NCBI GenBank assembly: GCA_040385585.1
Contig: JAZKHB010000015.1
Coordinates: 2,545-66,544 of the forward strand
DNA length: 64,000 bases
DNA from: Pseudomonadota bacterium
GTDB lineage: Bacteria > Pseudomonadota > Gammaproteobacteria > Pseudomonadales > Pseudomonadaceae
Direction of reading: 5' to 3'
Below the pieces are notes generated by a model that had not been told where the DNA came from, did not search any database, and saw nothing but the letters and a program-made list of their open reading frames with translations. Position numbers and translations under genes: made by a program. This document shows positions 1-14,105 of this stretch, piece after piece (positions within the stretch are counted from its first letter, which is position 1; every line of letters begins with the position of its first letter).

Positions 1-533
1 GTACGCGGGTTGCGGCGCAGGCCCAGGCAGCCCATCAGGTCGTTGCCGCCGATGCGCAGGGCGATGATCCGCCGGGCGTCGCCAGCCAGCAGGGCGGCGC
101 GCAGCTCACTCATGGCGCCGGGGTCGAAGACCTCGGCGGTTTCCAGGGTCGGCATCAGACACAGGTGCGAGGCGGCGACCGCCACTTCCCAGGCCCGCAG
201 GTTGTTCAGGCCCAGCTTGGGCAGGACGAAGCCGTCGACATGACGGATCAAGGGCCAGTCATTGAGCCGCGCCGCCATCTCCGAGGTGCGTGGGCGCACG
301 AACAACAGCGGCCCGCCGGCCGGACGGCCGCCACGGGCGTCGATCGCCTCCAGCAGGCCCTGCAGGTTGAGCAGCGCGACGTTGACGTCCAGTTCGGCCA
401 CCGCGTCCTCCAGGCACACCACCAGGGAGCGCAGACCGATGATCTTCTGGCCGAACACCACGTCCAGCAGGTCCTGGCGGGTGGCGGGCATATAGAGCGT
501 GGCGCCCAGTGCGTAGGGCGAGTGCTTGTCCAT
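1..533 (-). CDS. HpcH/HpaI aldolase / citrate-lyase-beta-like C-C lyase (Ter-associated); 3' end lies outside the window
   Basis: Own translation from ATG 533-531: MDKHSPYALGATLYMPATRQDLLDVVFGQKIIGLRSLVVCLEDAV...ALRIGGNDLMGCLGLRRNPR, which reads as a TIM-barrel lyase. Absent from the ORF track because it runs off the edge. Its ATG overlaps the upstream stop (TAATG). Confidence 0.7.
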   Translation of the reverse strand, partial: MDKHSPYALGATLYMPATRQDLLDVVFGQKIIGLRSLVVCLEDAVAELDVNVALLNLQGLLEAIDARGGRPAGGPLLFVRPRTSEMAARLNDWPLIRHVDGFVLPKLGLNNLRAWEVAVAASHLCLMPTLETAEVFDPGAMSELRAALLAGDARRIIALRIGGNDLMGCLGLRRNPR

Positions 534-1636
534 TAGCGGACCCTTTTGATGATGGTGACGGCCCGGTAGGGCCCCAAGGCCGCGCCGGCTTCTTCGACTT
601 CAATGCCCAGGCGGGCGGCCAGGTGCAGCAGCAACTGCACATCCTGGTCGGTCCGCGCGCGTACCAGCACGCTGTGCGGCACCCGCCGCAGCACGGCCCG
701 GGTGGCCTCGGCGATACCCGGCTTGATGCGGTTCGGGTTGTCGATGGCAAACCGCGCCGCCAGGTCGCCGATGGTCTGCCGGGCGCTGGCCTGCAGCATC
801 CGGCGCTGTTCGGTCGACCAGGGCTGGGCGGCGGCCACTGGAGCGCTCAGGCCCCGGCGCAGGCCATCGATTGTCTCGACAAAGGCGCGGGTGACATCAT
901 AAGGCCGTAGATTCTCATACTGCATGCAGCCGTGGTAGCCGCCGTCCTCGGTCCAGATGGTCCGCGAGATCAGCCCCGACACCGTGGCGCCGAGAATCCC
1001 CGAAGGAATCAGCCAGTCGTCGCTGGAGGGCGCGAGCCAGGCGTGACCACAGGGGTCGGCCAGGGTCACCAGCGGCGGCTCGCCGACGAAGCGCGGGTCG
1101 CCCCCCAGGCTGCGCGCCAGCTCCCCGGCGATGGCGCCCTTGCCGGTCCAGCCGTCGACGAAGACGATATTGGCCGCGCCATGGCGGGCGATCACTGCGT
1201 CCAGCGCGACCCGGTCCAGGCCGCGGTCGCGGATGATGCTCAGGCCGTAATGCCGCACCGCGCGGCCCCGCTCGGCCAGCGCCCGGCGCAGCAGCGCACC
1301 AAGGGGCGCGCCGGCGCGCACGAAGGACACCAGGGCGATGCTCGGCCCGGCGAAGCGCGCGTCCAGGGCGACCGCCAGGGCGGCCACGTCCGCGGCCATG
1401 CGCTGGCCGTTCTGCGCCAGGGCCTGGGCATAGAGTGCCTGGTGCACCTCGCCGGGCGGGTTTTCCGCGCCGATCATCTCGGAATAATGCCGTTGCTGGG
1501 ACTGGATCAGCCGCTCCTTCTCCTCGGCCGAGGTGATCTCGATCTGCAGCGGCTGCAGCAGAAAGTCCACGTCCTCGGGCAGGTAGCTGCCGTGCAGGCT
1601 GCGCAGGGCCTCAGACACCGGCGCCTCCCTGGGCAT
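533..1636 (-). CDS. Ter-associated PRTase-fold protein of the 'StiP' family
   Basis: 367-aa ORF starting at ATG 1636. Contains a PRPP-loop-like IVFVDGWTGKGAIAGEL and an N-terminal GSYLPEDVDFLL typical of the family as I recall it. Overlaps both neighbouring genes. Confidence 0.65.
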   Translation of the reverse strand: MPREAPVSEALRSLHGSYLPEDVDFLLQPLQIEITSAEEKERLIQSQQRHYSEMIGAENPPGEVHQALYAQALAQNGQRMAADVAALAVALDARFAGPSIALVSFVRAGAPLGALLRRALAERGRAVRHYGLSIIRDRGLDRVALDAVIARHGAANIVFVDGWTGKGAIAGELARSLGGDPRFVGEPPLVTLADPCGHAWLAPSSDDWLIPSGILGATVSGLISRTIWTEDGGYHGCMQYENLRPYDVTRAFVETIDGLRRGLSAPVAAAQPWSTEQRRMLQASARQTIGDLAARFAIDNPNRIKPGIAEATRAVLRRVPHSVLVRARTDQDVQLLLHLAARLGIEVEEAGAALGPYRAVTIIKRVR

Positions 1637-2396
1637 CCAGGCCCAGCACCGCGTCGGCCAACTGACCGCGGGTCGGCGTGCCCCACCAGTCGCACTCGCT
1701 CATAAAGCCCAGGTCGGACAGGCTGTCGCCGAATCCCAGCAGCGGGCGCTCGCCATGCAGGGCCCGGTCGCGGCGGATCCACTCCTGCACCGCCGTGCGC
1801 TTGCGCAGGCACTCGGGCAGAAACGCCAGGTTGTTGCCGTTGCGGTGCACGTACAGGCCCGTCAGGGGGTTGCGGGCGCGCACGGCGGCCAGCACCCGCG
1901 CCAGCACTTCGTCGTCGTCCTGGTTGTGCTTGATCACCACGTAGTTGGCCAGGCCGGCCTCCTCCACCACCCAACCGCGCAGGGAAATTTCCAGCGCTTC
2001 GCCCAGGCCCAGCACCTGCGCGCAGAGCAGCGGCAGGCTGTCCTGCTGGTCGGCCAGGCGCGCGCTCATCTGCGCGTGCCAGGTCGACTCCAGTTGACCC
2101 TCGGGCGTCAGCATCGCACCGCCATGGGCGCAGATGGCGCCGTGGCTGAAAGGCAGCTGCACCCGCTGATAAGCCTCGACGCTGCGCGCTGTCACTGGCA
2201 CCACGTCGGCGCTGGCCAGCAGCCATTCCACGAACTGCTTCTGCACCGGACGCATAAAGCCGATGGGCGCGCCCTGCAGATCCAGGGCCGCGGAGTGCCG
2301 CGGGCCGTCGCGCCAGGGGCCGGCGTCGAGCTTGCGGGCGCTCTGGAACAGGGTGTCGTCCAGATCGACGAATACCAGCGGACGTTCAAGGGCCAT
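1611..2396 (-). CDS. HAD-superfamily phosphatase (Ter-associated)
   Basis: 261 aa. HAD motif I is VFVDLDDTLF (DxDxT); the C-terminal GFGDSLSDLGFM resembles motif IV. Overlaps the upstream PRTase by 11 nt and the downstream gene by 26 nt. Confidence 0.8.
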   Translation of the reverse strand: MALERPLVFVDLDDTLFQSARKLDAGPWRDGPRHSAALDLQGAPIGFMRPVQKQFVEWLLASADVVPVTARSVEAYQRVQLPFSHGAICAHGGAMLTPEGQLESTWHAQMSARLADQQDSLPLLCAQVLGLGEALEISLRGWVVEEAGLANYVVIKHNQDDDEVLARVLAAVRARNPLTGLYVHRNGNNLAFLPECLRKRTAVQEWIRRDRALHGERPLLGFGDSLSDLGFMSECDWWGTPTRGQLADAVLGLDAQGGAGV

Positions 2397-3513
2397 CGAC
2401 TATCACCTCGGCATTCAGGGCGGCGACCAGCCGCGGATCGACCGCCGCGGCCGGCGTTTCGCTGCACAGCAGCACCCGGTCGAACTGACCGGGGGCGACG
2501 TTATACAGGAAGTTGGCGATACCCAGGCCATAGTTGTCGGTAAACGCCAGGGCGTGCTGCACCGCATGGCCCAGGGCGATGGGCGAGCGGCTGGTGGAGG
2601 AAAAGTGCACGTCGGCACCGCGCTGCTCCAGGGCCTCGGCCAGCAGAAAGGGCCGCCACACATGCTCGCTGGTGCCCAACACCAGGATCCGCTCGCCGGG
2701 ACGCAGCTGCACCTGGCGGCTGAGGGTCTCGCGGTGGCTGCGCACGCCCAGGCGCGCCCAGTCGTTTTCCGGCTGCAGGGGCCAGTCGCCGCGGGCCACG
2801 CTGTCGACCTTGGGCATGTCCGGCAACGGCGCGTCAGGATCGGCATGCCACTGGTAACGGCCCTCGAGCAGCGCCACCGAGCGGGCGTGTGGCCCCAGGG
2901 CCTGGCTGACCGCGCCTTCGGACCAGTCGGTCAGGGTCGCGGTGACCACCTGTTCGATCCGGCTCAGGCCCGCCTCCAGCAGCGCCCGGTACAGGTTGAT
3001 AAAGGTCTTGCCGGTGCTGGCCTCGTCGTCCACCAGCACCAGGCTGCGCGCCTGCATGACCCGGCGCAGGGTTTCCGGGTCCTGGGGCAGGTGCATCAGG
3101 TGCGCGCTGGCGTGGCTGTGCTCTTCCTCGAAGCGGCAGAGCAGCGGCGTGCCCAGCGGGTGGCGGGTGCTGGTCAGGTAGACGCTGTCGTCGCGGCGCC
3201 GGCTCAGCTCGCGCTGCACCCCGGCGCCCAGACCCACCGCGGTTTCCGCCATGCCCAGCACCAGCACCGGTCCCGGCAGGTCGGCGGGAATCAGCGCGGC
3301 CAGGGCGCCGAACGCCTCGGCCATGCGCGCCGGGCGCACCGGGATATGCCGGCCCAGCACCTTGGAGACGAACAGAAAGGCGCGCTTGGGGTTGCGCCGC
3401 TCGGCGAAGCCGAACAGGGCATCCGGCGCCTCGCTGGCACGGCTGACCTGCACATCCAGGCGTCCGCGGGCGAGCTGCACCTGCCGATCAGGGGGGAGAG
3501 AAACGTCGGTCAT
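2386..3513 (-). CDS. Phosphoribosyltransferase-domain protein (Ter-associated PRTase with C-terminal extension)
   Basis: PRPP-binding motif SLVLVDDEASTGKTF. The ORF opens at a TTG (3537); I chose the first ATG (3513, MTDVSLPP). Confidence 0.75.
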   Translation of the reverse strand: MTDVSLPPDRQVQLARGRLDVQVSRASEAPDALFGFAERRNPKRAFLFVSKVLGRHIPVRPARMAEAFGALAALIPADLPGPVLVLGMAETAVGLGAGVQRELSRRRDDSVYLTSTRHPLGTPLLCRFEEEHSHASAHLMHLPQDPETLRRVMQARSLVLVDDEASTGKTFINLYRALLEAGLSRIEQVVTATLTDWSEGAVSQALGPHARSVALLEGRYQWHADPDAPLPDMPKVDSVARGDWPLQPENDWARLGVRSHRETLSRQVQLRPGERILVLGTSEHVWRPFLLAEALEQRGADVHFSSTSRSPIALGHAVQHALAFTDNYGLGIANFLYNVAPGQFDRVLLCSETPAAAVDPRLVAALNAEVIVDGP

Positions 3514-3554
3514 GGGGGTTCCACGCAAAACCAGCAAGAAACAAGGCAGAGCAT

Positions 3555-3585
3555 AACGAAAACAGCCGCGAGCAGAGCCCGCGGC
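3555..3585 (-). terminator. Possible intrinsic terminator/attenuator inside the minus-strand Ter operon
   Basis: Minus strand reads GCCGCG-GGCTCTGCT-CGCGGC followed by TGTTTTCGTT. It lies in the 95-nt gap between the DUF1523 gene and the PRTase gene. The stem is short (6 bp), so this is tentative. Confidence 0.35.
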
Positions 3586-3632
3586 AGGTCAGGGTCGACG
3601 AGAAGTGGCGATGGCCTCGGGCGCAGCCCTGG

Positions 3633-4181
3633 CTAGCGTTGCGCAACCTCGCGGTTGGCCCGGCGCGTGCGCAACAGGCTTGCCACGCGCCAGCCGATAA
3701 ACAGCAGCAGCGCCGCCAGCAGCGTCAGAAACAGGGTATTGAACAAGGGGAACGGCTCATCGCGGCTAGTGGTGGCCTCGATGGAGATCAGGTTGGGGAA
3801 TGTCGAGAGTATCTGGATGCGCCAGCCGTAATAGCGGATCAGCGCCAGTTGATCGGCATCGCGGGACAACCCCTGGGCCCGGGCCTGCACATCGGCCGAG
3901 TCGAACTTGAAGTGCCAGGGGAAGCCCCAGCCGGTGTCCTCGTTGCGATAGACCCTGACTTCCTGGGTATCCGGGTGCTGAGTGTTGATGTAATAGACAT
4001 CGCGTGTCGGGCCGTCGGCCAGGTTTTCCGCATTGATCACGCCATCTTTATCGACCCGCTTGACCTCCACCCCGGTCACCTGCACCACCTCGTGGCGCGG
4101 CAGCAGGTAGTCCAGGGCGACGCCCGTGGCCAGCACCAGCAGCACGACCAGTGCAGCCAGTATCTTCTTCAGTACGCTCAT
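3633..4181 (-). CDS. DUF1523-like membrane-anchored protein
   Basis: 182 aa. N-terminal TM helix (ILAALVVLLVLATGVAL) and C-terminal TM helix (LFNTLFLTLLAALLLFIGW). The central YYINTQHPDT...VYRNEDTGWGFPWHFKFDSADVQA matches my memory of DUF1523. Own Shine-Dalgarno GGAGAGGG. Confidence 0.6.
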   Translation of the reverse strand: MSVLKKILAALVVLLVLATGVALDYLLPRHEVVQVTGVEVKRVDKDGVINAENLADGPTRDVYYINTQHPDTQEVRVYRNEDTGWGFPWHFKFDSADVQARAQGLSRDADQLALIRYYGWRIQILSTFPNLISIEATTSRDEPFPLFNTLFLTLLAALLLFIGWRVASLLRTRRANREVAQR

Positions 4182-4254
4182 ATCCCTCTCCAGTTAAACC
4201 TTGTAAGTGCCGCTAGCGGCCTATCAGCTCAGAGCCCCTTGGGCCCCCAGGCGT

Positions 4255-5400
4255 TCAGTGAACCTTGGCTTCGACTCGCCACAACGACGCCTGCACCTGA
4301 CGGATCAGTTCCGGCGTCGTCATGCTCCGCTCAGGGCGGGCCCGGGCCACCGGCACCCCCGCGGCCTCGAGAAAAGCCAGCACCAGGGCGCTCTTGACCG
4401 CGAAATTCATGTTCTGGGTGTCGCGCATCGAGGAGGTCACCACCCCGGCCACCAGACCGCTGGGGTCGAACACCGGACCGCCGCTGGACCCCGGCTGGAT
4501 CGGCGCGGTGAACTGCAGCAGCCCGGCATCGTCGAACGGCCCGAACAGCCCCGACACGCAGCCCTGGGTCACCTGCACCCCGCCGCCGGCCACGCCAGCC
4601 AGGGGAAAGCCCAGGGTGACGATATTCTCCCCCAGCTCGCAGCCCGGTCCCTCGCGAAAGGTCACCGGCTGAAAGCCACGGGTATCGGGCACGCGCAGCA
4701 GCGCCAGGTCGTTCTTGCTGTCCATCACCACCAGTTCGGCGCCGTGACGGCCATCGAAGGAGACGATACTAAGGCTGTCGACGCCTTCGATCACATGGGC
4801 ACAGGTAAGGATATGTTGCGAAGACACGGCAAAGCCGGTGCCGGTGCAGCTGCGCCGCTCGGCCGCCGCACCGCCGCCTTGGGGCCGTTGGGGGTGGCGC
4901 TCATCCAGCTCCACGCCCAGGCGCCGGCCCAGCGCCGCCAGGCCGTAGGCCGAACCGTCGGCCAGGGCACGCACCTTCCACTGGCCTTGGCGCCGGTACA
5001 GCTCCGCCAGGACCATGGCCGACTCACCCGAATCGCTCAGGTCGTGGCTGTATTCGATGCCGGCATCGACTTTCAGGCTCACCCGGCCCAGGCGCTGCAA
5101 CGGGCCGATGGCCTGGAACACATAGAGAATCACCAGCACCCGTTCCACCGCCGGCGGCAGTTGCGCCAGGGTACAGCTGCAACTCAGCTCGTCTTTCTGG
5201 CCCTGCCAGGTGAGCCAGGCGGTGTCCGGGCGATGGATCAGCGCCACCTCGCCCTGGGGCGTGCGCCGCTCGTCCACCGGCAGCAGGGCCAGGCCGGCGT
5301 AATCGCCCAACAGGCCGTCGCTGACGCTACGATCCAGGATCAAGCGGCACTGCTGCTGATCGGCCAAGGGCGCATTGGCACCCGGGGTCAGGGTGATCAT
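4255..5400 (-). CDS. TerD-like domain fused to a trypsin-like (S1/Trypsin_2-type) serine protease
   Basis: 381 aa. The N-terminal ~165 aa resemble TerA-N/TerD (MITLTPGANAPL..., AMVLAELYRRQGQWKVRALADGSAYGLAALGRRLGV). The C-terminal half carries TCAHV (His202), NDLALL (Asp231) and GSSGGP (Ser306). ATGA overlap with the ATP-grasp gene. Confidence 0.8.
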   Translation of the reverse strand: MITLTPGANAPLADQQQCRLILDRSVSDGLLGDYAGLALLPVDERRTPQGEVALIHRPDTAWLTWQGQKDELSCSCTLAQLPPAVERVLVILYVFQAIGPLQRLGRVSLKVDAGIEYSHDLSDSGESAMVLAELYRRQGQWKVRALADGSAYGLAALGRRLGVELDERHPQRPQGGGAAAERRSCTGTGFAVSSQHILTCAHVIEGVDSLSIVSFDGRHGAELVVMDSKNDLALLRVPDTRGFQPVTFREGPGCELGENIVTLGFPLAGVAGGGVQVTQGCVSGLFGPFDDAGLLQFTAPIQPGSSGGPVFDPSGLVAGVVTSSMRDTQNMNFAVKSALVLAFLEAAGVPVARARPERSMTTPELIRQVQASLWRVEAKVH

Positions 5401-6413
5401 CCGTGCAATTCCTGGGTGGCGGGCGGGAGGGCAACTGGCGTGGTAATGGCTTTGACCGTCACCCCGTCGCGCCAGGCGCTGACCGGCTCCGGCAAGCCGA
5501 GACGGCGAGTGGCGAAGATACCCGGCAGGTTGATCCCGGCCAGGGCCGTGTAACCGATACCGCCGGAGGGGCGCAGGTTGATTTCCAGCAGATGGGGCAG
5601 GCCCTCCGCGTCCTCGCGGGTCTGTACGTTGACAATCCCGTCACAGCCGAAATACGCCGCCGCCGCCAAGGCCAGGTCCACCGCCGGGCTCTCGCGCTCC
5701 AGGCGCTGCACCGTGCCAGCCTTGCGCCGCGCGACCCAGGCCACCACCGTACCAGCCTCGCAGACCATGTCCACCGAGCACTCCTCGCCCGCCAGGTAGC
5801 GCATCACCAGCTGCGGCTTGAGCTTGCGCGCGCGGGCATAAGCCTCGACAAAGGCCGGGGCGTGCACCCGGCGCGCATCGGGATTGGCGAAGCAGGCGAA
5901 GGGATCGCAATCCGCTTCCAGCCGCCAGAAACCCTGGCCATAGATGCCGTGAGTGGGTTTGACGCACACCGGGCCGTCGGCGGCCAGCCGGTCGATGGCC
6001 GTCTGCAGCTGCTCGGCCGACTCGACCACGATGGATTCGGCGCAGCGCAGGCCCGCGGCCTGGGCCGCGGCGGTGAACAGGCCCTTGTCGTCGACACGCT
6101 CGAAGCAGGCCAGGGACAGGGCGCCGGTGACCAGCTGGATACCGGCCGCCTCGAACTGTTGACGCGCCGGCTCGAACAGCTGCCCCGCGCGCCCGGCCAG
6201 CACCACGCGGATGCCGTGTTCGCGGGCCCGGGCCAGGACCCAGGGGATGCGCTCGGCGTCCTCGGCCGGCTCGCGCCAGGCCTGGTCGGCCATGCCGGTG
6301 ATTTCCGGGCGGTGCTGGCGATGGGAGGCATAGACCGTGACCGCGGCCGGCAGGACGCGCCGGGCCGCTTCGATCACTTCACGCTGGCTGGATTGGCCTT
6401 CCAGGAACCACAT
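5397..6413 (-). CDS. ATP-grasp enzyme (Ter-associated)
   Basis: ATP-grasp signatures VCVKPTHGIYGQGFW and HLLEINLRPSGGIGYT. The track ORF extends to 6560, but its N-terminal 49 aa look non-coding, so I chose ATG 6413 (MWFLEGQ). Confidence 0.75.
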   Translation of the reverse strand: MWFLEGQSSQREVIEAARRVLPAAVTVYASHRQHRPEITGMADQAWREPAEDAERIPWVLARAREHGIRVVLAGRAGQLFEPARQQFEAAGIQLVTGALSLACFERVDDKGLFTAAAQAAGLRCAESIVVESAEQLQTAIDRLAADGPVCVKPTHGIYGQGFWRLEADCDPFACFANPDARRVHAPAFVEAYARARKLKPQLVMRYLAGEECSVDMVCEAGTVVAWVARRKAGTVQRLERESPAVDLALAAAAYFGCDGIVNVQTREDAEGLPHLLEINLRPSGGIGYTALAGINLPGIFATRRLGLPEPVSAWRDGVTVKAITTPVALPPATQELHG

Positions 6414-6748
6414 ATCTTTATCCTTAAAGGTACGGCAGGGCCGGCGCAGGGCAGTTATCGCCGGTGCTGGCCGGCAGAATCGGGCCCGGGGTCGGGCGTT
6501 GGCAAACAAAGTAAGACACATCCGGAAAAAGGTCGGCTGGCTACCCGCCCGGAGGATCATTTACCATCTTAATAGTGTATGGCTAATGAAGGCGAATCAG
6601 TCGCATCGTTATGCCAGAATCGTCCTTCACCGGCGATCACCTGCAGGCATGCCCGGCCCCTATCGGCTGAGGGCGCTTCCAGGCGCAGGCTAGAGCCCCG
6701 GCACGGGCACCGATGTTCCCTTTCCAACCACGGCACGGATTCCTACCG
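6414..6748. promoter_or_regulatory. Divergent control region between the Ter enzyme operon and terZABCDE
   Basis: 335-bp non-coding gap between divergent first genes. It has an AT-richer core at ~6555-6640 within an otherwise GC-rich sequence. Confidence 0.55.
6561..6589 (+). promoter_or_regulatory. Candidate sigma70-type promoter for terZ
   Basis: TTACCA, 17-nt spacer, TAATGA. This would give a ~155-nt leader. It is a pattern match by eye only. Confidence 0.25.
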
Positions 6749-7336
6749 ATGAGCATCTCCCTCGCGAAAAACCAGACCATCTCCCTGGAAAAGCAAAGCA
6801 GCAGCCTGAGCAAGGTCAGCATGGGCCTGGGTTGGGATCCGGCAAAACCCACTGGCTTCTTCGGCAAAATGCTGGGCGGCGCCAGCGACATCGACCTCGA
6901 CGCCTCCTGCATCCTCTTTGACGCCCAGAAGCAGCCACTGGACAATATCTGGTTCCAGCAACTGCAATCGCGCGATGGCGCCATCCAGCACTCCGGCGAC
7001 AACCGCACCGGTGAAGGCGACGGCGACGACGAAACCATCCAGGTCGACCTCGATCGCCTGCCGGCCAACGTGCAGACCCTGGTCTTCACCGTCAACTCCT
7101 TCCAGGGCCAGACCTTCGACAAGGTCGCCAACGCCTATTGCCGCCTCGTCGACCTGGGCTCGCGCAAGGAACTGGCCCGCTTCGACCTGACCGGCAAGGG
7201 TTCGCACACCGGCGTGGTCATGGCCATGCTCAAGCGCACCGCCAACGGCTGGGACATGACCGCCATCGGCACGCCGACCAACGGCCGCACCGTGCAGGAC
7301 CTGCTGAACCTGGCCGCCCAGGCCATTCCGGCATGA
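6749..7336 (+). CDS. terZ: TerD-family protein, TerZ position
   Basis: MSISLAKNQTISLEKQSS...GLGWDPA; Ca-binding motif GDNRTGEGDGDDE. Start chosen by the canonical TerD N-terminus (M13 of the track ORF). ATGA overlap with terA. Confidence 0.88.
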   Translation: MSISLAKNQTISLEKQSSSLSKVSMGLGWDPAKPTGFFGKMLGGASDIDLDASCILFDAQKQPLDNIWFQQLQSRDGAIQHSGDNRTGEGDGDDETIQVDLDRLPANVQTLVFTVNSFQGQTFDKVANAYCRLVDLGSRKELARFDLTGKGSHTGVVMAMLKRTANGWDMTAIGTPTNGRTVQDLLNLAAQAIPA

Positions 7337-8571
7337 GTCTGCTGACGCCGGGCGCCAACGCGTCCGTGCCTAGCGGCACACTCAGCGCCACTGTGCGTTT
7401 CAGCCCGACCAGCGTGGCGGGCGCCGATATCGACGTCTCGGCGTTTCTGCTGACCACCGCGGGCAAGGTGCGCGGCGACCAGGACATGATTTTCTATGGG
7501 CAAAAAAGCAGCGCCGACACCAGCGTCACGCTCAGTGCCTCGAACCCCGGCCAGGTGAGCTTCAGCCTGGACCTGGAGCGCCTGGACCCGGCCATCGAGA
7601 AGATCGCCCTGACCGCGACCATCTACGAGAACCGCGCCACCTTCGCCACGCTGCAGAGCCTGGCCCTGAGCATCGAGCAGACCGGCACAGTGCTTATAGA
7701 AGCGCCCATCCCCACCCAGGGCATGGCGGAAACCGCGTTGATCCTCGGTGAGTTCTACCGTCGCCAGGGCGCCTGGAAATTCCGCTGCATCGCCCAGGGC
7801 TTCGCCGGCGGCCTGCAGCCCCTGGCCGAGCACTTCGGCATCACGGTAGCGGCGGCGGAACCGACTCCGGCGCCCCCGCCAGCGGCCGCGGCACCGGCTC
7901 CTTCGCCTAGCCCTGCACCGAGCCCCGCGCCACCGGCGAAAAGTACGGTCTCCCTGACCAAGATCACCCTGGACAAGCAGCGCAGCAGTATCAGCCTGGA
8001 GAAGACCGCCAGCGGCTTCGGCGAGATCCGCATCAACCTGAACTGGAACCGCGGCACACCCCAGGCCAGCAAAGGCCTGCTCTCCGGGCTGTTCGGCCGC
8101 GCCAGCAACGGCATCGACCTGGACGTCGGCTGCCTGTTCGAGCTGGCGGACGGCCGCAAGGGCGCGGTGCAGGCCCTGGGCGACGCCTTCGGCAGCTTCG
8201 AGCACCCGCCCTTTATCGAACTCAAGGGCGACGACCGTACCGGCGCGGTCAGCGACGGCGAATGGATGCGCATCAATGGCGGCCAGTGGGACGCGGTCAA
8301 GCGCGTCCTGATCTATGCCTTCATCTACGAAGGAGCACCCAACTGGTCCAATACCGGCGGGGTGATCACCCTGTATGTGCCGGGCCAGCCGCCGATCGAG
8401 GTGCAGCTGAGCGAGGGCACCAATAACATGAACATGTGCGCCATCGCCCTGCTGGAAAACGTCGGCGGCGCGGTTAAGGTGTCGCGCCAGGTGCGGTATT
8501 TCAAGGGTCACCAGGAGGTCGACCAGGCCTTCGGCTGGGGCATGCGCTGGGCCGCCGGTTCCAAGGACTAA
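7333..8571 (+). CDS. terA: TerA-like protein with two TerD-like domains joined by a Pro/Ala/Ser linker
   Basis: N-terminal half: MSLLTPGANASVP...[34 protein letters not shown]. Linker: AAAEPTPAPPPAAAAPAPSPSPAPSPAPPA. C-terminal half: ISLEKTASGFGEIRINLNW...GDDRTGAVSDGE. Confidence 0.85.
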   Translation: MSLLTPGANASVPSGTLSATVRFSPTSVAGADIDVSAFLLTTAGKVRGDQDMIFYGQKSSADTSVTLSASNPGQVSFSLDLERLDPAIEKIALTATIYENRATFATLQSLALSIEQTGTVLIEAPIPTQGMAETALILGEFYRRQGAWKFRCIAQGFAGGLQPLAEHFGITVAAAEPTPAPPPAAAAPAPSPSPAPSPAPPAKSTVSLTKITLDKQRSSISLEKTASGFGEIRINLNWNRGTPQASKGLLSGLFGRASNGIDLDVGCLFELADGRKGAVQALGDAFGSFEHPPFIELKGDDRTGAVSDGEWMRINGGQWDAVKRVLIYAFIYEGAPNWSNTGGVITLYVPGQPPIEVQLSEGTNNMNMCAIALLENVGGAVKVSRQVRYFKGHQEVDQAFGWGMRWAAGSKD

Positions 8572-8596
8572 TACGTTTCGCTTAGAGGAAAACATC

Positions 8597-9046
8597 ATGC
8601 TTAACTGGCTCAAAACCAACACCGCCGCGGCGCGTACGCGCCTGGCAGAAGAAATCGGCAAGTTCAAGAACCGCGAGTTCATGGAAGCGGTCGTTGCCGG
8701 CTGCGCCTTGGTATCGGCAGCCGATGGCGATATCAACGCCAGCGAAAAACAGAAAATGATCGGTTTTATCCAGAATTCGGACGAACTCAAGGTGTTTGAC
8801 CTGACCTTGGTGATCGATACCTTCAACAAGATCTGTGGCAAGTTCGAATTCGACGCGTCCATCGGCCGCGCCGAAGCCTTGAAACTGGTCGGTCGCCTGC
8901 GCAACAACACCGACGCGGCACGCTTGCTGGTGCGCGTATGCTGCGCGGTGGGCAATGCCGACGGTAACTTCGACAGCAGCGAGCAGGCGGCCTGCCGGGC
9001 CATCTGCACCGAGCTCGGGCTGTCTCCCTCTGAATTTGATTTGTGA
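8597..9046 (+). CDS. terB: Tellurite-resistance protein TerB
   Basis: 149 aa; the helical TerB pattern (AADGDINASEKQKM..., VGNADGNFDSSEQAA) occurs twice. Good Shine-Dalgarno AGAGGAAAA. Confidence 0.88.
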   Translation: MLNWLKTNTAAARTRLAEEIGKFKNREFMEAVVAGCALVSAADGDINASEKQKMIGFIQNSDELKVFDLTLVIDTFNKICGKFEFDASIGRAEALKLVGRLRNNTDAARLLVRVCCAVGNADGNFDSSEQAACRAICTELGLSPSEFDL

Positions 9047-9055
9047 GTATCTGAA

Positions 9056-10087
9056 TTGGAAAGCACCGCTATCGGCTTCCCGCCGTTAACCATCGCCGTC
9101 TTCGTCGGCCTGGCCCTCGTGGCCCTGGCCATCGACCTGTTTACCCACAAGGGTGACAAGCCGATCAGCCTGCTCAACGCCTCGCTCTGGTCGGTGTTCT
9201 GGGTGGTCATTTCCATGGCCTTCGCCGGCTTTCTCTATGTGTCCCACGGCTCCCAGGTCGCCAGCCTGTTCGTGACCGGCTACGCCCTGGAGAAAGTCCT
9301 GAGCGTGGACAACCTGTTCGTCTTCATGGCGATCTTTTCCTGGTTCAGCATCCCCGACAACCTGCGGCACCGGGTGCTCTACTGGGGCATCATCGGCGCC
9401 ATCGTGTTCCGCCTGATCTTCGTGGTCATCGGCACCGGCCTGCTGGCCTTCGGCCCCTGGGTCGAGGTGCTGTTCGCGGTGGTCGTGGCCTGGACCGCGG
9501 TGATGATGCTCAAGAGCAGCGGCGACAGCGAGGGGATCGAGGACTATTCCGGCCATATCGCCTACCGGGCCACCCAGCGCCTGTTCCCGGTCTGGCCCAA
9601 GCTGCATGGCCACAATTTCTTCATCTCGCGCAAGGAAGCCGAAGGCGAGCTGAGGAAGCCCGGCAACGGCGGCATCAGCCTGGCGGCCAAGGGCGCCTGG
9701 TTCGCCACTCCGCTGCTGCTGTGCGTGGCCGTGGTCGAGGTGTCGGATGTGATGTTTGCCTTCGACTCGGTGCCGGCCATCATCGCCGTTAGCCGCGAGC
9801 CGCTGATCGTTTACTCGGCGATGATCTTCGCCATCCTGGGTCTGCGGACCATGTACTTCGTGCTCGAAGCCCTCAAGCGCTACCTGGTGCACCTGGAGAA
9901 GGCAGTTATCGCCTTGCTGTTTTTTATCTCCGCCAAGCTTGCACTCAACGCAACTGACCACATATTCCATACCGGGTATGCCATCGATGCCAATACCAGC
10001 CTGATCGTGGTGCTGGTGGTGCTGGCGATCGGCATCGTGGCCAGCGTGCTGTTTCCGGAAAAACCGGATGAGGCCAGCGAAAAGTAA
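9056..10087 (+). CDS. terC: TerC-family integral membrane protein
   Basis: 343 aa, multi-pass hydrophobic; YALEKVLSVDNLFVF and FAFDSVPAI are TerC signatures. TTG at 9056 is the only start codon available in the open frame after the in-frame stop at 9044-9046. Confidence 0.88.
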   Translation: MESTAIGFPPLTIAVFVGLALVALAIDLFTHKGDKPISLLNASLWSVFWVVISMAFAGFLYVSHGSQVASLFVTGYALEKVLSVDNLFVFMAIFSWFSIPDNLRHRVLYWGIIGAIVFRLIFVVIGTGLLAFGPWVEVLFAVVVAWTAVMMLKSSGDSEGIEDYSGHIAYRATQRLFPVWPKLHGHNFFISRKEAEGELRKPGNGGISLAAKGAWFATPLLLCVAVVEVSDVMFAFDSVPAIIAVSREPLIVYSAMIFAILGLRTMYFVLEALKRYLVHLEKAVIALLFFISAKLALNATDHIFHTGYAIDANTSLIVVLVVLAIGIVASVLFPEKPDEASEK

Positions 10088-10111
10088 CCATCGAGGATAA
10101 GGAGACCTCTC

Positions 10112-10687
10112 ATGGCGATTACTCTGCAGAAAGGCGGTAACCTGTCGCTGTCCAAGACCGACCCGAGCCTCAAGCGCATTTTGATTGGCTTGGGTTGGGA
10201 CGAACGGGCCACCGACGGGACCGATTTCGACCTGGATGCCAGCGCCTTCATGCTGACGGCCCAGGGCAAGGTGCGCACTGACGCGGACTTTATCTACTAC
10301 AACCAGCTGCGCTCGCCGGAAGGTGCCCTGGAGCACACCGGCGACAACCGTTCGGGGCAGGGCGAAGGCGACGACGAAACCCTCCGAGTCGACCTGAGCA
10401 AGATTCCGGCAGGCATCGAAAAGATCGTGATCACGGTCACCATCCACGATGCCGCTGCACGCAAGCAGAACTTCGGCCAGGTGGCCAACGCCTTTATCCG
10501 CGTGGTCAACGAAGAGTCGAATGTGGAAATCGTGCGGTATGACCTGGCCGAGGACTATTCCACCGAAACGGCGATGGTCTTCGGCGAGCTCTACAGCCAC
10601 AACGGCGAATGGAAATTCCGCGCCGTGGGCCAGGGCTACGCGGGCGGCCTGGCCGCCATGTGCAATCAATACGGCATTGTTGTTTAA
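10112..10687 (+). CDS. terD: TerD
   Basis: 191 aa. MAITLQKGGNLSLSK..., GDNRSGQGEGDDE, FGELYSHNGEWKFRAVGQGYAGGL. Shine-Dalgarno AAGGAGA. Confidence 0.93.
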   Translation: MAITLQKGGNLSLSKTDPSLKRILIGLGWDERATDGTDFDLDASAFMLTAQGKVRTDADFIYYNQLRSPEGALEHTGDNRSGQGEGDDETLRVDLSKIPAGIEKIVITVTIHDAAARKQNFGQVANAFIRVVNEESNVEIVRYDLAEDYSTETAMVFGELYSHNGEWKFRAVGQGYAGGLAAMCNQYGIVV

Positions 10688-10714
10688 CGGCAGTCAACTA
10701 AAGGGAAAACGAAC

Positions 10715-11290
10715 ATGGCTATCAGTCTGAGCAAGGGCGGCAACGTCTCGCTGTCCAAGGAAGCACCCGGCCTCAACGAAATCACCGTGGGCCTGGGCTG
10801 GGATGCACGCGTTACCGACGGCACCGACTTCGACCTGGATGCCTCGGTGTTCATCACTGGCGAGAACGGCAAGGTGTTGTCCGATGCGTCCTTCATCTTC
10901 TACAACAACAAGACCTCGGCCTGCGGCAACGTCGAACACCTGGGCGACAACCGCACCGGCGACGGCGACGGCGACGACGAGAAGGTCAACGTCAAGCTCA
11001 ACGGCCTGGCCGCGGACGTGAAGAAGCTGGTCTTCGCCGTCACCATCCACGACGCCGATGCCCGCAAGCAGAGCTTCGGCCAGGTCAGCAACGCCTTTAT
11101 CCGTGTGGTCAACAAGACCGACGGCAAGGAAATCGCCCGCTACGACCTGTCGGAAGACGCCTCCACCGAAACCGCTATGATCTTCGGCGAGCTGTACCGC
11201 CACGGCGACGAGTGGAAGTTCAAGGCCATCGGCCAGGGCTTCGCCGGCGGTCTGCAGCCGTTAGCCGCCTCCCACGGCGTCGGTGTATAA
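10715..11290 (+). CDS. terE: TerD paralog, TerE position
   Basis: 191 aa. [15 protein letters not shown]..., [37 protein letters not shown]. Confidence 0.92.
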
Positions 11291-11304
11291 GCTTTAAGCG
11301 CCTA

Positions 11305-11335
11305 ATAAAAAACCCGCCAAGTGCGGGTTTTTTTA
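11305..11335 (+). terminator. Rho-independent terminator of terZABCDE
   Basis: AAAAAACCCGCCAAGTGCGGGTTTTTTT, 15 nt after the terE stop. Confidence 0.85.
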
Positions 11336-11373
11336 TGGGCGCTGCTTCCAGAATGGCGCTGCGCCCATGCCTG

Positions 11374-11418
11374 TAGCAGGCCGTTGAAAAACGTAGGTAG
11401 TTTTTCAACGGCCTGCTA
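11374..11418. repeat. REP-like perfect palindrome (19-bp stem, 7-nt loop)
   Basis: TAGCAGGCCGTTGAAAAAC-gtaggta-GTTTTTCAACGGCCTGCTA. A related half-copy lies at 23731-23759 (25 of 29 nt identical). Confidence 0.6.
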
Positions 11419-11425
11419 GCCGCGG

Positions 11426-12220
11426 CTACACCGCCACCGGCGCCTTTATATGCGGATGGGCCTGGTAGTCCAGCAGCTCGAAATCCTCGAAGCGGAAGGC
11501 GAACAGGTCCTTGACCACCGGGTTCAGCCGCATGCGCGGCAGCGGATAGGGCTCGCGGGTCAGCTGCAGGTCGGCCTGTTCCAGGTGGTTGGCGTACAGA
11601 TGGCAGTCCCCGCCGGTCCAGATGAAGTCCCCCGGCGCCAGGTCGCAGACCTGGGCCACCATCAGGGTCAGCAGCGCATAGCTGGCGATATTGAATGGCA
11701 CGCCGAGGAAGATATCCGCCGAACGCTGGTACAACTGGCAGCTGAGCTTGCCGTCGGCCACGTAGAACTGGAACAGGGCATGGCAGGGCGGCAGGGCCAT
11801 CTGCTCGACCAGCGCCGGGTTCCAGGCCGATACCATCAGCCGGCGCGAATCCGGGTTGCGCTTGATCATGGCGATCAGCTGACTGATCTGGTCGATGGAC
11901 TCGCCGTTGGGCGCCGGCCAGTTGCGCCACTGGTAGCCGTAGACCGGGCCGAGGTCGCCGTTCTCGTCGGCCCATTCATCCCAGATGCGAACCCCATGGT
12001 CCTGCAGGTACTTGATATTGGTGTCGCCCTGCAGGAACCACAGCAGCTCGTGGACGATGGACTTCAAATGGCACTTCTTGGTGGTCACCAGGGGAAAGCC
12101 CTGGGCCAGGTCGAAGCGCATCTGGTGGCCGAACAGGCTGTAGGTGCCAGTGCCGGTGCGGTCGCCCTTGACCGTGCCGGTCTCGCGCACCAGGCGCATC
12201 AGGTCCAGGTACTGTTTCAT
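11426..12220 (-). CDS. thyA: Thymidylate synthase
   Basis: [26 protein letters not shown]...[11 protein letters not shown]...[16 protein letters not shown], 264 aa. The track ORF has a spurious N-terminal extension into lgt. Confidence 0.97.
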
Positions 12221-13020
12221 CGTGCACCTCCATGGGCGGCCTGGCGGCGATAGGCGAAAAGGATAAGAGCGATGCCGCCGAGCATCATCGGCAGACTGAG
12301 AATTTGGCCCATGGTCAGCCAGCCGCCCGCCAGGTAGCCGAGCTGGACATCCGGCACCCGGACGAACTCGACGATAAAACGGAACAGCCCGTAGCACAGG
12401 GCGAACATCCCCGAGACGGCCATGGTCGGCCGCGGCTTGCGCGAATACAGCCAGAGAATGGCGAACAGGGCGAAGCCTTCCAGGGCCACCTGATACAGCT
12501 GCGACGGGTGACGGGCCAGCTGTTCGGGGTCGGTGGGGAAAACCATGGCCCAAGGCAGGTCGGTGGCCTTGCCCCACAGCTCGGCGTTGATAAAATTACC
12601 GACCCGGCCGGCACCCAGGCCAATGGGCACCAGGGGGGCGATAAAGTCCATCAGCTCGAAGAAGCTCTTGCCGTTGCGCTTGCCGAACCACCAGGTGGCC
12701 AACATCACGCCGAGCAACCCGCCATGGAACGACATGCCGCCCTTCCACACTTGCAGCACCAGGCTGGGGTCGTTCAGGTAGGCCTGCAGGTCGTAGAACA
12801 GCACATAGCCCAGGCGCCCGCCGAGTATCACGCCCATGGCCACCCAGAACACCAGGTCCGAGAGTTTCTCGCGGCTCCAGGTGGCATCGAAACGCTGCAA
12901 CCGGCGCGAAGCCAGCCACCAGGCGCCGCCGATGCCGATCAGGTACATCAAACCGTACCAGTGGATCTTGATCAGCCCCAGGTCCAGGGCCACCGGATTG
13001 ATCTGCGGGTAAGGCAACAT
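12217..13020 (-). CDS. lgt: Prolipoprotein diacylglyceryl transferase
   Basis: [29 protein letters not shown]...; 4-nt overlap with thyA. Confidence 0.95.
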
Positions 13021-13030
13021 TAAAAACTCC

Positions 13031-13813
13031 TTAGATCAGGAAATTCACGCCCACTACCAGCAGTAGCAGGGCGAATAGACGCTTGAGCAGGCGAGGCGAC
13101 AACTTGTGTGCCAGGCGCGCGCCAAAGCGGGCGAAAAACATGCTGGTCAGGGCGATCCCGACCATGGCCGGCAGGTAGATATACCCCAAACTCCAGGCCG
13201 GCAGCTGCGGCGCGTTCCAACCGGTAAACATGAAACCCAGGGCGCTGGCCAGGGCGATCGGCAGGCCGCAGGCCGAAGAAGTGGCCACCGCCTTTTGCAT
13301 CGGCACGCTGCGCCAGGTGAGAAACGGCACGCTGAGCGAGCCGCCGCCGATACCGAAAATCGCCGAAGCCCAGCCGATAAACGACCCGGCAACCGCCAGA
13401 CCGAACTTGCCGGGTACCTCGCGGCCGGGCTTGGGCTTGAGCTCCAGGGCCATCTGCAGCGCGATGCACAGGGCGAACACGCCGATGATCTTCTGCAACA
13501 AGGGGCCCTTGATAGCCGCCGCGGTCAGCGCGCCGGCCGCGGCGCCCAGCAGAATCCCCACCGTCATCCAGGCGAATACCGCCCAGAGCACCGCACCCTT
13601 ACGCTGGTGCTCCAGCACGGCATTGATCGAGGTAAAGATGATGGTCGCCAGGGAAGTGCCCACGGCCAGGTGCGTCAGTATCGCCGGCTCGAACCCCTGG
13701 GCGCCGAAGCTGAAGACCAGCACCGGCACGATGATCAGGCCACCGCCGACGCCGAACAGCCCGGCCAGCACGCCGGCGCAAGCACCCAGCAGCAGATACA
13801 GCAGAAATTCCAT
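13031..13813 (-). CDS. TauE/SafE-family anion exporter
   Basis: [30 protein letters not shown], with a second [10 protein letters not shown] repeat; multi-TM. Start set at the ATG at 13813. Confidence 0.85.
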
Positions 13814-14105
13814 CAAGAGCCCCCACACGCGAAGCGGCATGGTACCGGAAGCGCCCCTCCGCGCTCCACACCGATGGCGACAAAGCGACCCCGGGAGAGG
13901 CCGCTCAATTCCCTTGCAGTGGACCTCTACCATTGAGCAAGCCGCATCAACCGTCGGCCACAAACACCTACGCAGAGGTGATCAGTCCTCGAATAAACGC
14001 CCAGGCTTGCGTTAGTCTTGGCACGGGCGCGCCAGACGCGTCACATGGAGCGAAATCGGATGCCAGGGCGCGCACGGATGCCTGGCGACTTAAGGAGTGG
14101 TCTCG

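Follow-up and report, generated by a model that had tools for sequence, protein, structure and literature searches.

A locally rearranged chromosomal copy of the Pseudomonas-type Ter locus and the putative chemistry of its linked enzyme array

The first 11,335 positions of the window (the whole 64,000-nucleotide stretch of Pseudomonadaceae DNA that was analysed) almost certainly carry an intact chromosomal Pseudomonas-type copy of the classical Ter locus. This locus consists of two blocks, the terZABCDE operon on the plus strand (6749-11290) and its usual companion, an enzyme array, on the minus strand (1-6413). It is genuine and tightly conserved, yet ordinary: it is a locally rearranged member of a system already known and widely annotated. 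Our best explanation as a whole, i.e. a Ter locus associated with a Ter-linked module that would make a nucleoside-like product, has in our estimate a probability of about 0.55. The features of the locus are the following.

1-533, minus strand: HpcH/CitE-type C-C lyase, N-terminal 177 of about 319 aa, cut by the window edge (C-C_Bond_Lyase, E = 2.5e-53)
533-1618 or 533-1636, minus strand: StiP (formerly PRTase_1) plus PELOTA_1 protein, 361-367 aa (StiP, E = 2.8e-85; PELOTA_1, E = 6.4e-25)
1611-2396, minus strand: HAD-fold phosphatase, 261 aa (PDB 6CJ0/6D3V/6D3W, E = 4.5e-96 over residues 2-250)
2386-3513, minus strand: PRTase_2 plus TRSP phosphoribosyltransferase, 375 aa (PRTase_2, E = 5.4e-59; TRSP, E = 5.4e-20)
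3565-3585, minus strand: terminator-like hairpin between the DUF1523 and PRTase_2 genes, 9 pairs (8 G-C) then TGTTTTCGTT
3633-4181, minus strand: DUF1523 protein, 182 aa, with a hydrophobic stretch at each end (Pfam DUF1523, E = 1.1e-57)
4255-5400, minus strand: TerD::S1 (trypsin-like) serine protease fusion, 381 aa (TerD, E = 7.5e-12; Trypsin_2, E = 1.1e-25)
5397-6413, minus strand: Ter-type ATP-grasp ligase, first gene of the array, 338 aa (Pfam ATPgrasp_Ter, E = 6.7e-40)
6414-6748: divergent intergenic region, 335 bp, presumed site of both promoters
6749-7336, plus strand: terZ, TerD family, 195 aa, with the Ca2+-type motif GDNRTGEGDGDDE (Pfam TerD, E = 1.2e-48)
7333-8571, plus strand: terA, 412 aa (Pfam TerD, E = 3.2e-38)
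8597-9046, plus strand: terB, 149 aa (Pfam TerB, E = 2.2e-21)
9056-10087, plus strand: terC, TerC/Alx-family integral membrane protein, 343 aa, TTG start (Pfam TerC, E = 7.4e-42)
10112-10687, plus strand: terD, 191 aa (Pfam TerD, E = 1.5e-87)
10715-11290, plus strand: terE, TerD paralogue, 191 aa (Pfam TerD, E = 1.1e-84)
11312-11336: bidirectional intrinsic terminator, A-run, 6-bp GC stem and T-run (AAAAAACCCGC-caagt-GCGGGTTTTTTT)

All 13 genes are intact open reading frames at the coordinates given by the first-pass annotation, the C-C lyase gene being cut by the window edge. The profile-HMM searches that it had proposed as a check were run and back its family calls for all products: the Pfam assignments all score well over the curated cut-offs (gathering scores), and the HAD is identified through its match with PDB structures. 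It had described the genes as mostly overlapping or separated by short gaps, and this is correct since the computed junctions range from -4 to +119 bp on the minus strand (-4, +73, +119, -11, -8 and -1 bp, from the ATP-grasp gene to the lyase gene) and from -4 to +27 bp on the plus strand (-4, +25, +9, +24 and +27 bp, from terZ to terE). The count of seven genes in the enzyme array needs correction. Judged from an 87%-identical relative (the MAG L002), the array has eight genes, the last one encoding a second HAD (PF12710) after the lyase; housekeeping genes come next in this relative, which places the end of the array there. The term "island" is weakly supported, the cluster being flanked by thyA/lgt and other housekeeping genes. 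The thyA gene (aligned at 11428-12222, minus strand) converges on the ter operon from the right, and no tRNA, integrase or transposase is in view around the cluster.

The genes terZ-A-B-C-D-E form one tight unit ending in a terminator, with terZ and terA overlapping by ATGA. The strong terminator previously noticed 3′ of terE is confirmed by the sequence at 11312-11336 and by the fold that includes it (-32.5 kcal/mol, z = -4.4). As read from the translations, TerZ, TerD and TerE each carry the acidic Ca2+-binding motif GDNR(T/S)G.G.GDDE, and TerD matches the structure of the Ca2+-binding TerD of Klebsiella (2KXT, E = 4e-90). The N-terminal TerD-like domain of TerA is devoid of this acidic motif, and its C-terminal half is also TerD-like. 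The relative L002 carries a syntenic counterpart of terA (408 aa) and an orthologue of terC (343 aa). Tellurite, phage-inhibition and colicin phenotypes have been shown for ter homologues in E. coli, Klebsiella and P. citronellolis. Resistance to tellurite was obtained in E. coli with terZ-F alone, and the minimal set required is terCD. Since terZ-F or terCD alone suffice in these other hosts, the enzyme module is not required for the tellurite phenotype.

In the enzyme array, the ATP-grasp ligase has an orthologue of 337 aa in L002. The TerD::protease fusion has a TerD-like domain at its N-terminus, which aligns to the N-terminus of TerA and does not retain the acidic Ca2+ motif. The catalytic triad of its protease domain (His202, Asp231, Ser305) is invariant among 16 homologues. 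An assignment to HtrA/DegP was considered and rejected: the S1 triad is present, but the protein has neither a PDZ domain (Pfam) nor a signal peptide for periplasmic targeting, and the HtrA, DegP and DegS models all score far under their cut-offs. Downstream of the DUF1523 gene, the stem at 3565-3585 is retained in L002 although both of its arms carry substitutions. Because of this conserved hairpin and its T-tract, the enzyme array may be split at this point into two transcription units. At the other end of the array, the full-length lyase orthologue from L002 matches CitE structures (E = 2e-4). As for the 335 bp separating the two blocks, the alignment with L002 reveals an AT-rich core at 6511-6612, some 100 bp long, whose conservation is limited to this 87%-identical relative. 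The region upstream of the ATP-grasp gene has no match in 70 other loci, and a scan of 6414-6748 for the sigma-70 consensus gave no match.

The PRTase_2 protein displays in its translation a canonical PRPP loop, VLVDDEASTGKT. In StiP, a PRPP-loop-like sequence (FVDGWTGKGAI), two cysteines (C190 and C231) and several histidines are invariant among the aligned homologues. The AF2 model of StiP is moderately confident (pLDDT 71). In a Foldseek search, the only high-probability neighbours of its N-domain were HGPRT/XGPRT (probability 0.75-0.93, TM about 0.4-0.47, with weak E-values of 0.05-0.13), and no protease fold was found among its structural neighbours. On these weak matches, the modelled N-domain would thus resemble purine phosphoribosyltransferases rather than a protease. 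NCBI and Pfam nevertheless label StiP as a cysteine protease and, given this label and the invariant cysteines and histidines, it could perform a chemistry other than that of a PRTase. The HAD, which shows the DLDDT motif in its translation, aligns over its full length with the P. aeruginosa "trehalose phosphatase" (6CJ0/6D3V, about 63% identity). Its gene sits between the two PRTase genes and overlaps both the PRTase_2 and the StiP genes.

The co-conservation of the two blocks, another check that had been named beforehand, was examined on 80 species-representative loci. All 13 genes are present in 64 of them, and the same pairing of blocks is found in E. coli O157 and in Pseudomonas megaplasmids. 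Both blocks are present in 75 loci, and they are collinear in 74 of these. Among the compared Pseudomonas-type loci, only the lineage made of the present locus and the 87%-identical MAG has its ter block inverted, and only there has the DUF1523 gene moved inside the array. Of the 80 related loci, 33 have a DUF1523 gene within 10 kb, usually in divergent orientation and immediately before the start of the ATP-grasp gene. The Pseudomonas-type locus occurs in at least 269 species-representative genomes, and ter is present in about a fifth of the complete genomes of E. coli (1014 of 5426). The linkage of the two blocks extends to Gammaproteobacteria, Burkholderia and a phage, Acinetobacter phage ME3, whose PRTase_2-HAD-PRTase triad adjoins TerD and vWA genes; it has also been reported in Bacillus.

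The gene identities, the intact catalytic motifs and the co-inheritance of both blocks are observations; from them we infer a chemistry and a link between its product and the Ter proteins. Taken as a set, the steps that follow have in our view about an even chance of being right. The PRTase_2/TRSP protein would couple phosphoribosyl pyrophosphate (PRPP) to a base-like acceptor, giving a ribosyl-5′-phosphate compound, while assembly or modification of the acceptor or of a side chain would fall to the ATP-grasp ligase together with the CitE/HpcH-type lyase. The two HAD phosphatases would then strip the phosphate, yielding a nucleoside-like small molecule. StiP, putatively a degenerate PRTase that carries an additional L7Ae/Pelota-type domain, would bind ribose-phosphate or RNA and could be either a second transferase or a regulator. 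The product would act on or through a membrane-proximal complex of TerD, TerB and TerC, altering cation handling and the envelope state under chemical or phage stress. The Pseudomonas/Burkholderia type adds a serine protease with a TerD domain, predicted to be cytoplasmic, and the membrane protein DUF1523, which may form an output or regulatory arm. Since the ter genes confer resistance to tellurite when the enzyme module is absent, gene linkage is the sole ground on which we propose that the product and the Ter proteins are functionally connected. The group that defined the system models the product as nucleoside-like, which is still a prediction in papers up to 2025; no identification of the metabolite was found in the literature searched. 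The first-pass statement that neither metabolite nor mechanism had been shown experimentally agrees with these papers, but it is slightly too strong since a ter-cluster HAD has been crystallised and assayed on trehalose-6-phosphate.

The latter enzyme raises another explanation, in which the HAD would be a true trehalose-6-phosphate phosphatase and the module would make or recycle a compatible solute or glycoside against osmotic or oxidative stress. We regard it as very improbable, even though an orthologue of the HAD was deposited as "trehalose phosphatase" and the PGAP name of the gene is "trehalose-phosphatase". HAD phosphatases are often promiscuous in vitro. Furthermore, the HAD lies outside the curated TPP families (no Pfam or NCBIfam match, including the Trehalose_PPase and TPP models, at E ≤ 0.01), its gene overlaps its PRTase neighbours, and trehalose-6-phosphate synthase is absent from the 13 cluster genes across the 80 loci. 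Homologues of the HAD are found in 2559 plasmids, and the gene is inside a ter cluster at every locus inspected. The crystallised P. aeruginosa enzyme itself, 99.6% identical to the product of a ter-cluster gene of plasmid CP109686.1, is by this sequence identity the ter-cluster HAD. Its structures 6CJ0, 6D3V and 6D3W come from Cross et al. 2018, as cited in PMC6838324, where inhibitors are tested against the enzyme as an active TPP. It is a Mg-dependent phosphatase, and the substrate on which it was assayed, trehalose-6-phosphate, is a glycoside that ends in a primary phosphate. Trehalose-6-phosphate is of the same chemical type as a ribosyl-5′-phosphate conjugate. The available portion of PMC6838324 regards the protein as a drug target and as a trehalose enzyme acting on its own, and discusses neither the ter-cluster context nor a ribosyl-phosphate substrate. 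The sole substrate reported for the HAD is a sugar phosphate, not a nucleotide. It is less improbable, albeit unlikely, that the system is directed at RNA, StiP and PRTase_2 acting on RNA or being guided by it to give a modified base or ribosylated nucleotide in RNA, or else a regulator bound to RNA, and not a metabolite in free form. The PELOTA_1 match of StiP (E = 6e-25) and the superposition of its modelled C-domain on the K-turn binders L7Ae, Snu13 and eS12 (AF2 models, probability 1.0) favour such a role. However, proteins with an L7Ae-like fold also bind ligands other than RNA, the locus and its surroundings gave neither an RNA gene nor an Rfam match, and two phosphatases and a C-C lyase suit small-molecule chemistry better.

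A signal-triggered anti-phage defence is the rival that we take most seriously, although it remains rather doubtful. Upon infection, the module would make a nucleotide-derived alarm molecule sensed by TerD or TerB domains, and the TerD-domain protease, with DUF1523 and TerC at the membrane, would execute an abortive or exclusion response. Phage inhibition belongs to the classical ter phenotypes, the defining group interprets what the PRTase and HAD make as signalling that a threat is on its way, and TerB-domain proteins belong to the validated defence systems Dionysus, Bunzi and Shango. Moreover, the abbreviated Ter set carried by a phage is expected for superinfection exclusion, and the closest defence models to the protease domain are RT-protease type XI, LmuA and Avs1b. 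However, this generic domain is the only match in PADLOC-DB v2, the other nine proteins tested giving none. The locus lies among housekeeping genes and not within a defence island, and the enterobacterial loci in which phage inhibition was described have neither the protease nor DUF1523. Finally, the two blocks could be functionally independent neighbours, the enzyme array merely travelling with terZABCDE. The sufficiency of terZ-F or terCD for tellurite resistance and the location of the blocks on opposite strands, with presumed separate promoters, are consistent with this. Nevertheless, their linkage survives rearrangement (collinear in 74 loci, divergent here and in E. coli) and spans Gammaproteobacteria, Burkholderia, Bacillus (from the literature) and a phage, and one of the proteins of the enzyme array itself contains a fused TerD domain; mere cohabitation is thus hardly credible.

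Compared with known systems, the Ter locus described here shares the divergent layout of the ter loci of the E. coli O157:H7 island, IncHI2 R478 and Klebsiella pK2044, and the Klebsiella one is described in the literature as two bidirectional operons. In E. coli O157, the ATP-grasp, PRTase_2, HAD, StiP and HpcH lyase genes face terZ-A-B-C-D-E in the same order as here. The terC-terE DNA of the enterobacterial loci is 66-68% identical to that of the present one. However, enterobacterial loci add terF, terW and DUF4236 (on plasmids, also terXY), are devoid of the TerD::protease, DUF1523 and terminal HAD-IB, and are carried by plasmids or IS-rich islands, whereas the present locus lies between housekeeping genes. 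The 13-gene cluster of Pseudomonas and Burkholderia, found on chromosomes and on pBT2436/IncP-2-type megaplasmids (such as pPniHBP1_1 and pRBL16), has the same 13 families, among them the TerD::protease and a second HAD, with protein identities of 52-83%. The terZABCDE genes of pRBL16 confer high-level resistance to tellurite. Unlike the present locus, these clusters read in a single direction, from the enzyme genes into terZ-E (74 of 75 loci), and a DUF1523 gene, where there is one, is located upstream of the ATP-grasp gene in divergent orientation instead of lying inside the array with its own hairpin. The Ter-dependent stress-response systems were reportedly defined by Anantharaman, Iyer and Aravind in 2012. 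For the Ter-linked biosynthetic module, the Pfam families ATPgrasp_Ter, PRTase_2, TRSP, StiP, PELOTA_1 and C-C_Bond_Lyase each have a match here, and its HAD is likewise present between the two PRTases.

The locus at the left end of the window is almost certainly a Ter locus with a linked enzyme module. Since the G+C content of the window is 62-70%, spurious ORFs are plentiful on both strands; the 13 ORFs retained in the first-pass annotation are those among them that have family support. On the + strand, profile-HMM searches matched TerZ, TerA, TerB, TerC, TerD and TerE to Pfam TerD, TerB or TerC (E = 1e-21 to 1e-87), and the family calls on the − strand were likewise borne out by Pfam matches, named here with the genes:

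6749-11290, + strand: terZABCDE
5397-6413, − strand: ATP-grasp gene (ATPgrasp_Ter)
4255-5400, − strand: TerD::protease fusion (TerD + Trypsin_2)
3633-4181, − strand: DUF1523 gene (DUF1523)
2386-3513, − strand: PRTase gene (PRTase_2 + TRSP)
1611-2396, − strand: HAD gene
533-1636, − strand: StiP gene (StiP + PELOTA_1)
1-533, − strand: C-C lyase gene, cut by the left edge (C-C_Bond_Lyase)

The HAD call holds through a full-length match to the HAD-fold structures 6CJ0, 6D3V and 6D3W (E = 4.5e-96) and a visible DLDDT motif. The starts proposed for the ATP-grasp gene (6413) and terZ (6749) were reproduced by comparison with an 87%-identical Pseudomonas sp. MAG (L002). Successive genes are separated by -4, +73, +119, -11, -8 and -1 bp on the − strand and by -4, +25, +9, +24 and +27 bp on the + strand, and the terminator noticed 3′ of terE (AAAAAACCCGC/GCGGGTTTTTTT, 11312-11336) is clear (fold z-score -4.4).

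DUF1523 is followed, ahead of PRTase_2, by a 9-bp hairpin (9 pairs, 8 of them G-C) and a T-tract (3565-3585, − strand), whose stem is kept in L002 despite substitutions in both arms. This element suggests that the enzyme "operon" may actually consist of two units or be attenuated at this point. The divergent intergenic region contains an AT-rich core of about 100 bp (6511-6612) that is near-identical in the close relative and has no counterpart ahead of the ATP-grasp gene at any of 70 other loci; neither a promoter, in a sigma-70 consensus scan, nor an operator was recognised in this region. Searching the locus against Rfam, also for a Mn riboswitch that might precede terC or terZ, gave only sub-threshold chance matches overlapping terminators. 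On the other side, only 90 bp (11338-11427) separate the terE terminator from thyA, and a further long hairpin within them (11370-11412) probably terminates thyA. An additional 150-aa ORF (3615-4067 of L002) lies between the terE terminator and thyA in the relative and is absent from the window.

The left end of the cluster was inferred from L002, which has an identical layout and 82% nucleotide identity over positions 1-11337 of the window. The seven enzyme genes initially described are all present, but their total was too low: in L002 an eighth gene, for a second HAD (HAD2) of family PF12710, closes the array and is followed by genes for a DUF3482 GTPase, DUF2868 and GDPD and then by folA. 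The cluster therefore spans about 17 kb between core genes (on the left side, as in L002), and thyA (11428-12222, − strand) converges on terE. In P. aeruginosa PAO1, thyA and folA lie close to each other. Outside the cluster, the window consists of housekeeping DNA (thyA, ilvA, aphA, argH, hemC), and no tRNA or Rfam gene was found in it; given these housekeeping matches and the absence of tRNA, we rejected the idea that the window derives from a plasmid or mobile element. In none of 78 other species does the cluster adjoin thyA, lgt, DUF3482 or GDPD, and it has therefore moved during evolution. The term "island" thus stands weakly, for an element that has changed site, and falls short otherwise: the cluster is flanked by core genes, no mobility gene is in view around it, and the GC3 of its genes (0.76-0.91) bears no sign of recent import. 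Although terB-terE have a lower G+C content than the enzyme genes (58-62% in 8597-11290 vs 68-71% in 1-6413), their GC3 values are close (0.76-0.88 vs 0.83-0.91); the gap sits in codon positions 1 and 2 and reflects protein composition, not recent import.

Relatives of the TerD::protease were found in at least 269 species-representative genomes, nearly all of Pseudomonas, with some of Burkholderia, Stutzerimonas, Microbulbifer and others. The best 80 of these loci were searched by tblastn with all window proteins. The two blocks, assigned to one island in the first-pass annotation, are co-conserved: all 13 families occur in 64 of the 80 loci, and most of the remaining 16 are truncated contigs. 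Seventy-five loci hold both blocks, and in 74 of them the two are collinear (ATP-grasp > TerD::protease > PRTase_2 > HAD > StiP > lyase > HAD2 > terZ > A > B > C > D > E), the one divergent case being L002, the close relative of the window. Of the 80 loci, 33 have DUF1523, which is almost always divergent from the ATP-grasp gene and placed 120-600 bp upstream of it; a position between the protease and PRTase_2 is peculiar to the window lineage. In seven Burkholderia loci (L018, L033, L034, L064, L071, L073 and L077), TerD::protease, PRTase_2, HAD, StiP, lyase, terZ, A, B, D and E were matched, whereas ATP-grasp, the second HAD and TerC were not (tblastn, E<1e-5, coverage >=50%). Either these three have diverged or the locus is a reduced variant. 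In the P. aeruginosa plasmid CP109686.1 (L083), two IS1182 copies interrupt the ter cluster, at 5688-7061 and 13417-14790, one at the site expected for TerD::protease and the other at that expected for terA. In the Acinetobacter jumbo phage vB_AbaM_ME3 (L084, 3834-9880), genes for vWA, membrane and TerD-like proteins form one run with those for PRTase_2, HAD and a second PRTase, which points to PRTase_2-HAD-PRTase as the smallest conserved set within the module.

The name "cysteine protease StiP" reportedly goes back to an Acinetobacter study. It is now given to PF11202 by NCBI and Pfam, and no protease fold was found among the structural neighbours of our StiP model. In the whole-protein AF2 model (pLDDT 76), the C-terminal domain firmly has an L7Ae/Snu13/eS12 fold. 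As this small domain dominated the fold search, the N-terminal 262 residues were modelled separately (pLDDT 71), and hypoxanthine/xanthine-guanine PRTases were their only high-probability neighbours (probability 0.75-0.93, about 123 residues aligned, rmsd 3.7-5 Å, weak E-values of 0.05-0.13). The invariant FVDGWTGKGAI lies in the model on a strand-loop-helix, which in PRTases holds the 5-phosphate of PRPP; of the two acidic residues usual there, one is missing. The initial description of StiP as a PRTase is therefore probable at the level of the fold, with catalysis putative and the cysteine-protease reading less probable. The remaining structural neighbours, PLP enzymes (rmsd 17-19 Å, probability <0.3), and the marginal matches to MurD (E = 0.002) and colicin Ib (E = 0.18) in PDB sequence/profile searches were taken as noise.

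The catalytic residues of the TerD::protease (His202, Asp231, Ser305) are invariant in 16 homologues sharing 51-88% identity. Its N-terminal domain is TerD-like (27% identity to the TerA N-terminus, E = 3e-14; 30% to TerD, E = 2e-19), but the TerD GDNRSGQGEGDDE position is PDTAWLTWQGQKDE in the fusion, and the canonical Ca2+ site is therefore lost. As it has neither signal peptide nor PDZ domain, an HtrA-type identity was ruled out.

The HAD gene of the window has no Pfam or NCBIfam match and lies outside the curated TPP families. Its product is about 63% identical to an enzyme from the P. aeruginosa [quoted passage not shown], crystallised (6CJ0, 6D3V, 6D3W) and assayed according to PMC6838324. 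In the ter cluster of CP109686.1, the gene flanked by PRTase_2 and StiP (8998-9756 of L083) encodes a protein 99.6% identical to the crystallised one, which is thus, by sequence, the HAD of the ter-linked module. The accessible part of this inhibitor paper does not mention the ter context, and no mention of the structures was found in the accessible parts of the Ter papers, a literature from which they seem to be absent. Since the HAD is outside the curated TPP families and no trehalose-6-phosphate synthase accompanies it, the trehalose-6-phosphate activity may stand in for activity on the terminal phosphate of a glycoside or ribosyl compound. One module enzyme with crystal structures and an assay therefore offers a direct biochemical entry for ribosyl-phosphate substrates.

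Reported associations of Ter are resistance to tellurite, phages and colicins, and gut fitness. [quoted passage not shown] As ter genes alone suffice, the enzyme module is dispensable for this resistance. Its product was predicted in papers of 2021 and 2025, as in the first-pass annotation, to be a nucleoside-like (or pyrimidine-like) metabolite, and no identification was found in later literature. The likeliest function, with a probability of about one half, is that the array makes such a nucleoside-like product acting through Ter proteins. PRTase_2 would convert PRPP into a ribosyl-5′-phosphate conjugate, the ATP-grasp ligase and the CitE/HpcH-type lyase would provide or decorate the acceptor, and the HADs would remove the phosphate; the product would then act via TerD, TerB and TerC at the membrane. 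StiP may be a ligand-binding or RNA-binding component, and the protease and DUF1523 lineage-specific output or regulatory parts.

Among the alternatives, phage defence gated by a signal is unlikely, even with TerB domains since found in validated anti-phage systems. More improbable is a reading in which the Pseudomonas/Burkholderia locus would be a self-contained metabolite-gated proteolytic switch: a ribosylated signal, produced by the PRTase, ATP-grasp, lyase and HAD enzymes, would be bound by the protease through its TerD domain, devoid of the Ca2+ motif, in the role that PDZ has in HtrA, and the active protease, DUF1523 and the TerC complex would remodel the envelope or abort phage infection at the membrane. 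If true, the TerD fold would act as a ligand sensor, and Ter, after 40 years, would have a concrete mechanism of signalling. An RNA-directed role, for which the L7Ae-type domain of StiP speaks, is slightly less probable again. Sugar-phosphate metabolism, with the assayed phosphatase on one side and the missing synthase on the other, is very improbable, as is mere co-travel of two blocks, which would suit a module dispensable for tellurite resistance and sits poorly with a linkage kept despite rearrangement. The nucleoside-like product remains our preferred reading.

Ter is widespread, in about one fifth of complete E. coli genomes (1014 of 5426), on thousands of plasmids (HAD homologues on 2559) and in hundreds of Pseudomonas and Burkholderia species. 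The window contributes a further intact copy, which is chromosomal and rearranged, and leaves the long-standing Ter question unchanged; the module's product and the role of Ter are no more testable here than in E. coli, in Klebsiella or on the megaplasmids. In E. coli O157, ATP-grasp, PRTase, HAD, StiP, HpcH, DUF4236 and terW face terZABCDEF, a divergent layout as in the window, and the published description of the Klebsiella pK2044 locus is divergent too. A DUF4236 gene, absent from the locus of the window, accompanies ter between HpcH and terW in E. coli O157 (11132-12340 of L085) and 3′ of terE on a Pseudomonas megaplasmid (15844-17037 of L001). Every family, the linkage between them and the divergent layout too have been described before and are annotated routinely; particular to the window are the local rearrangement of a Pseudomonas-type cluster and its chromosomal site. 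Enterobacterial ter loci lack the TerD-domain serine protease and DUF1523, whereas in the Pseudomonas type the protease, limited to Pseudomonas-type replicons, has an intact triad and the DUF1523 membrane protein is recurrent, both being easy genetic targets.
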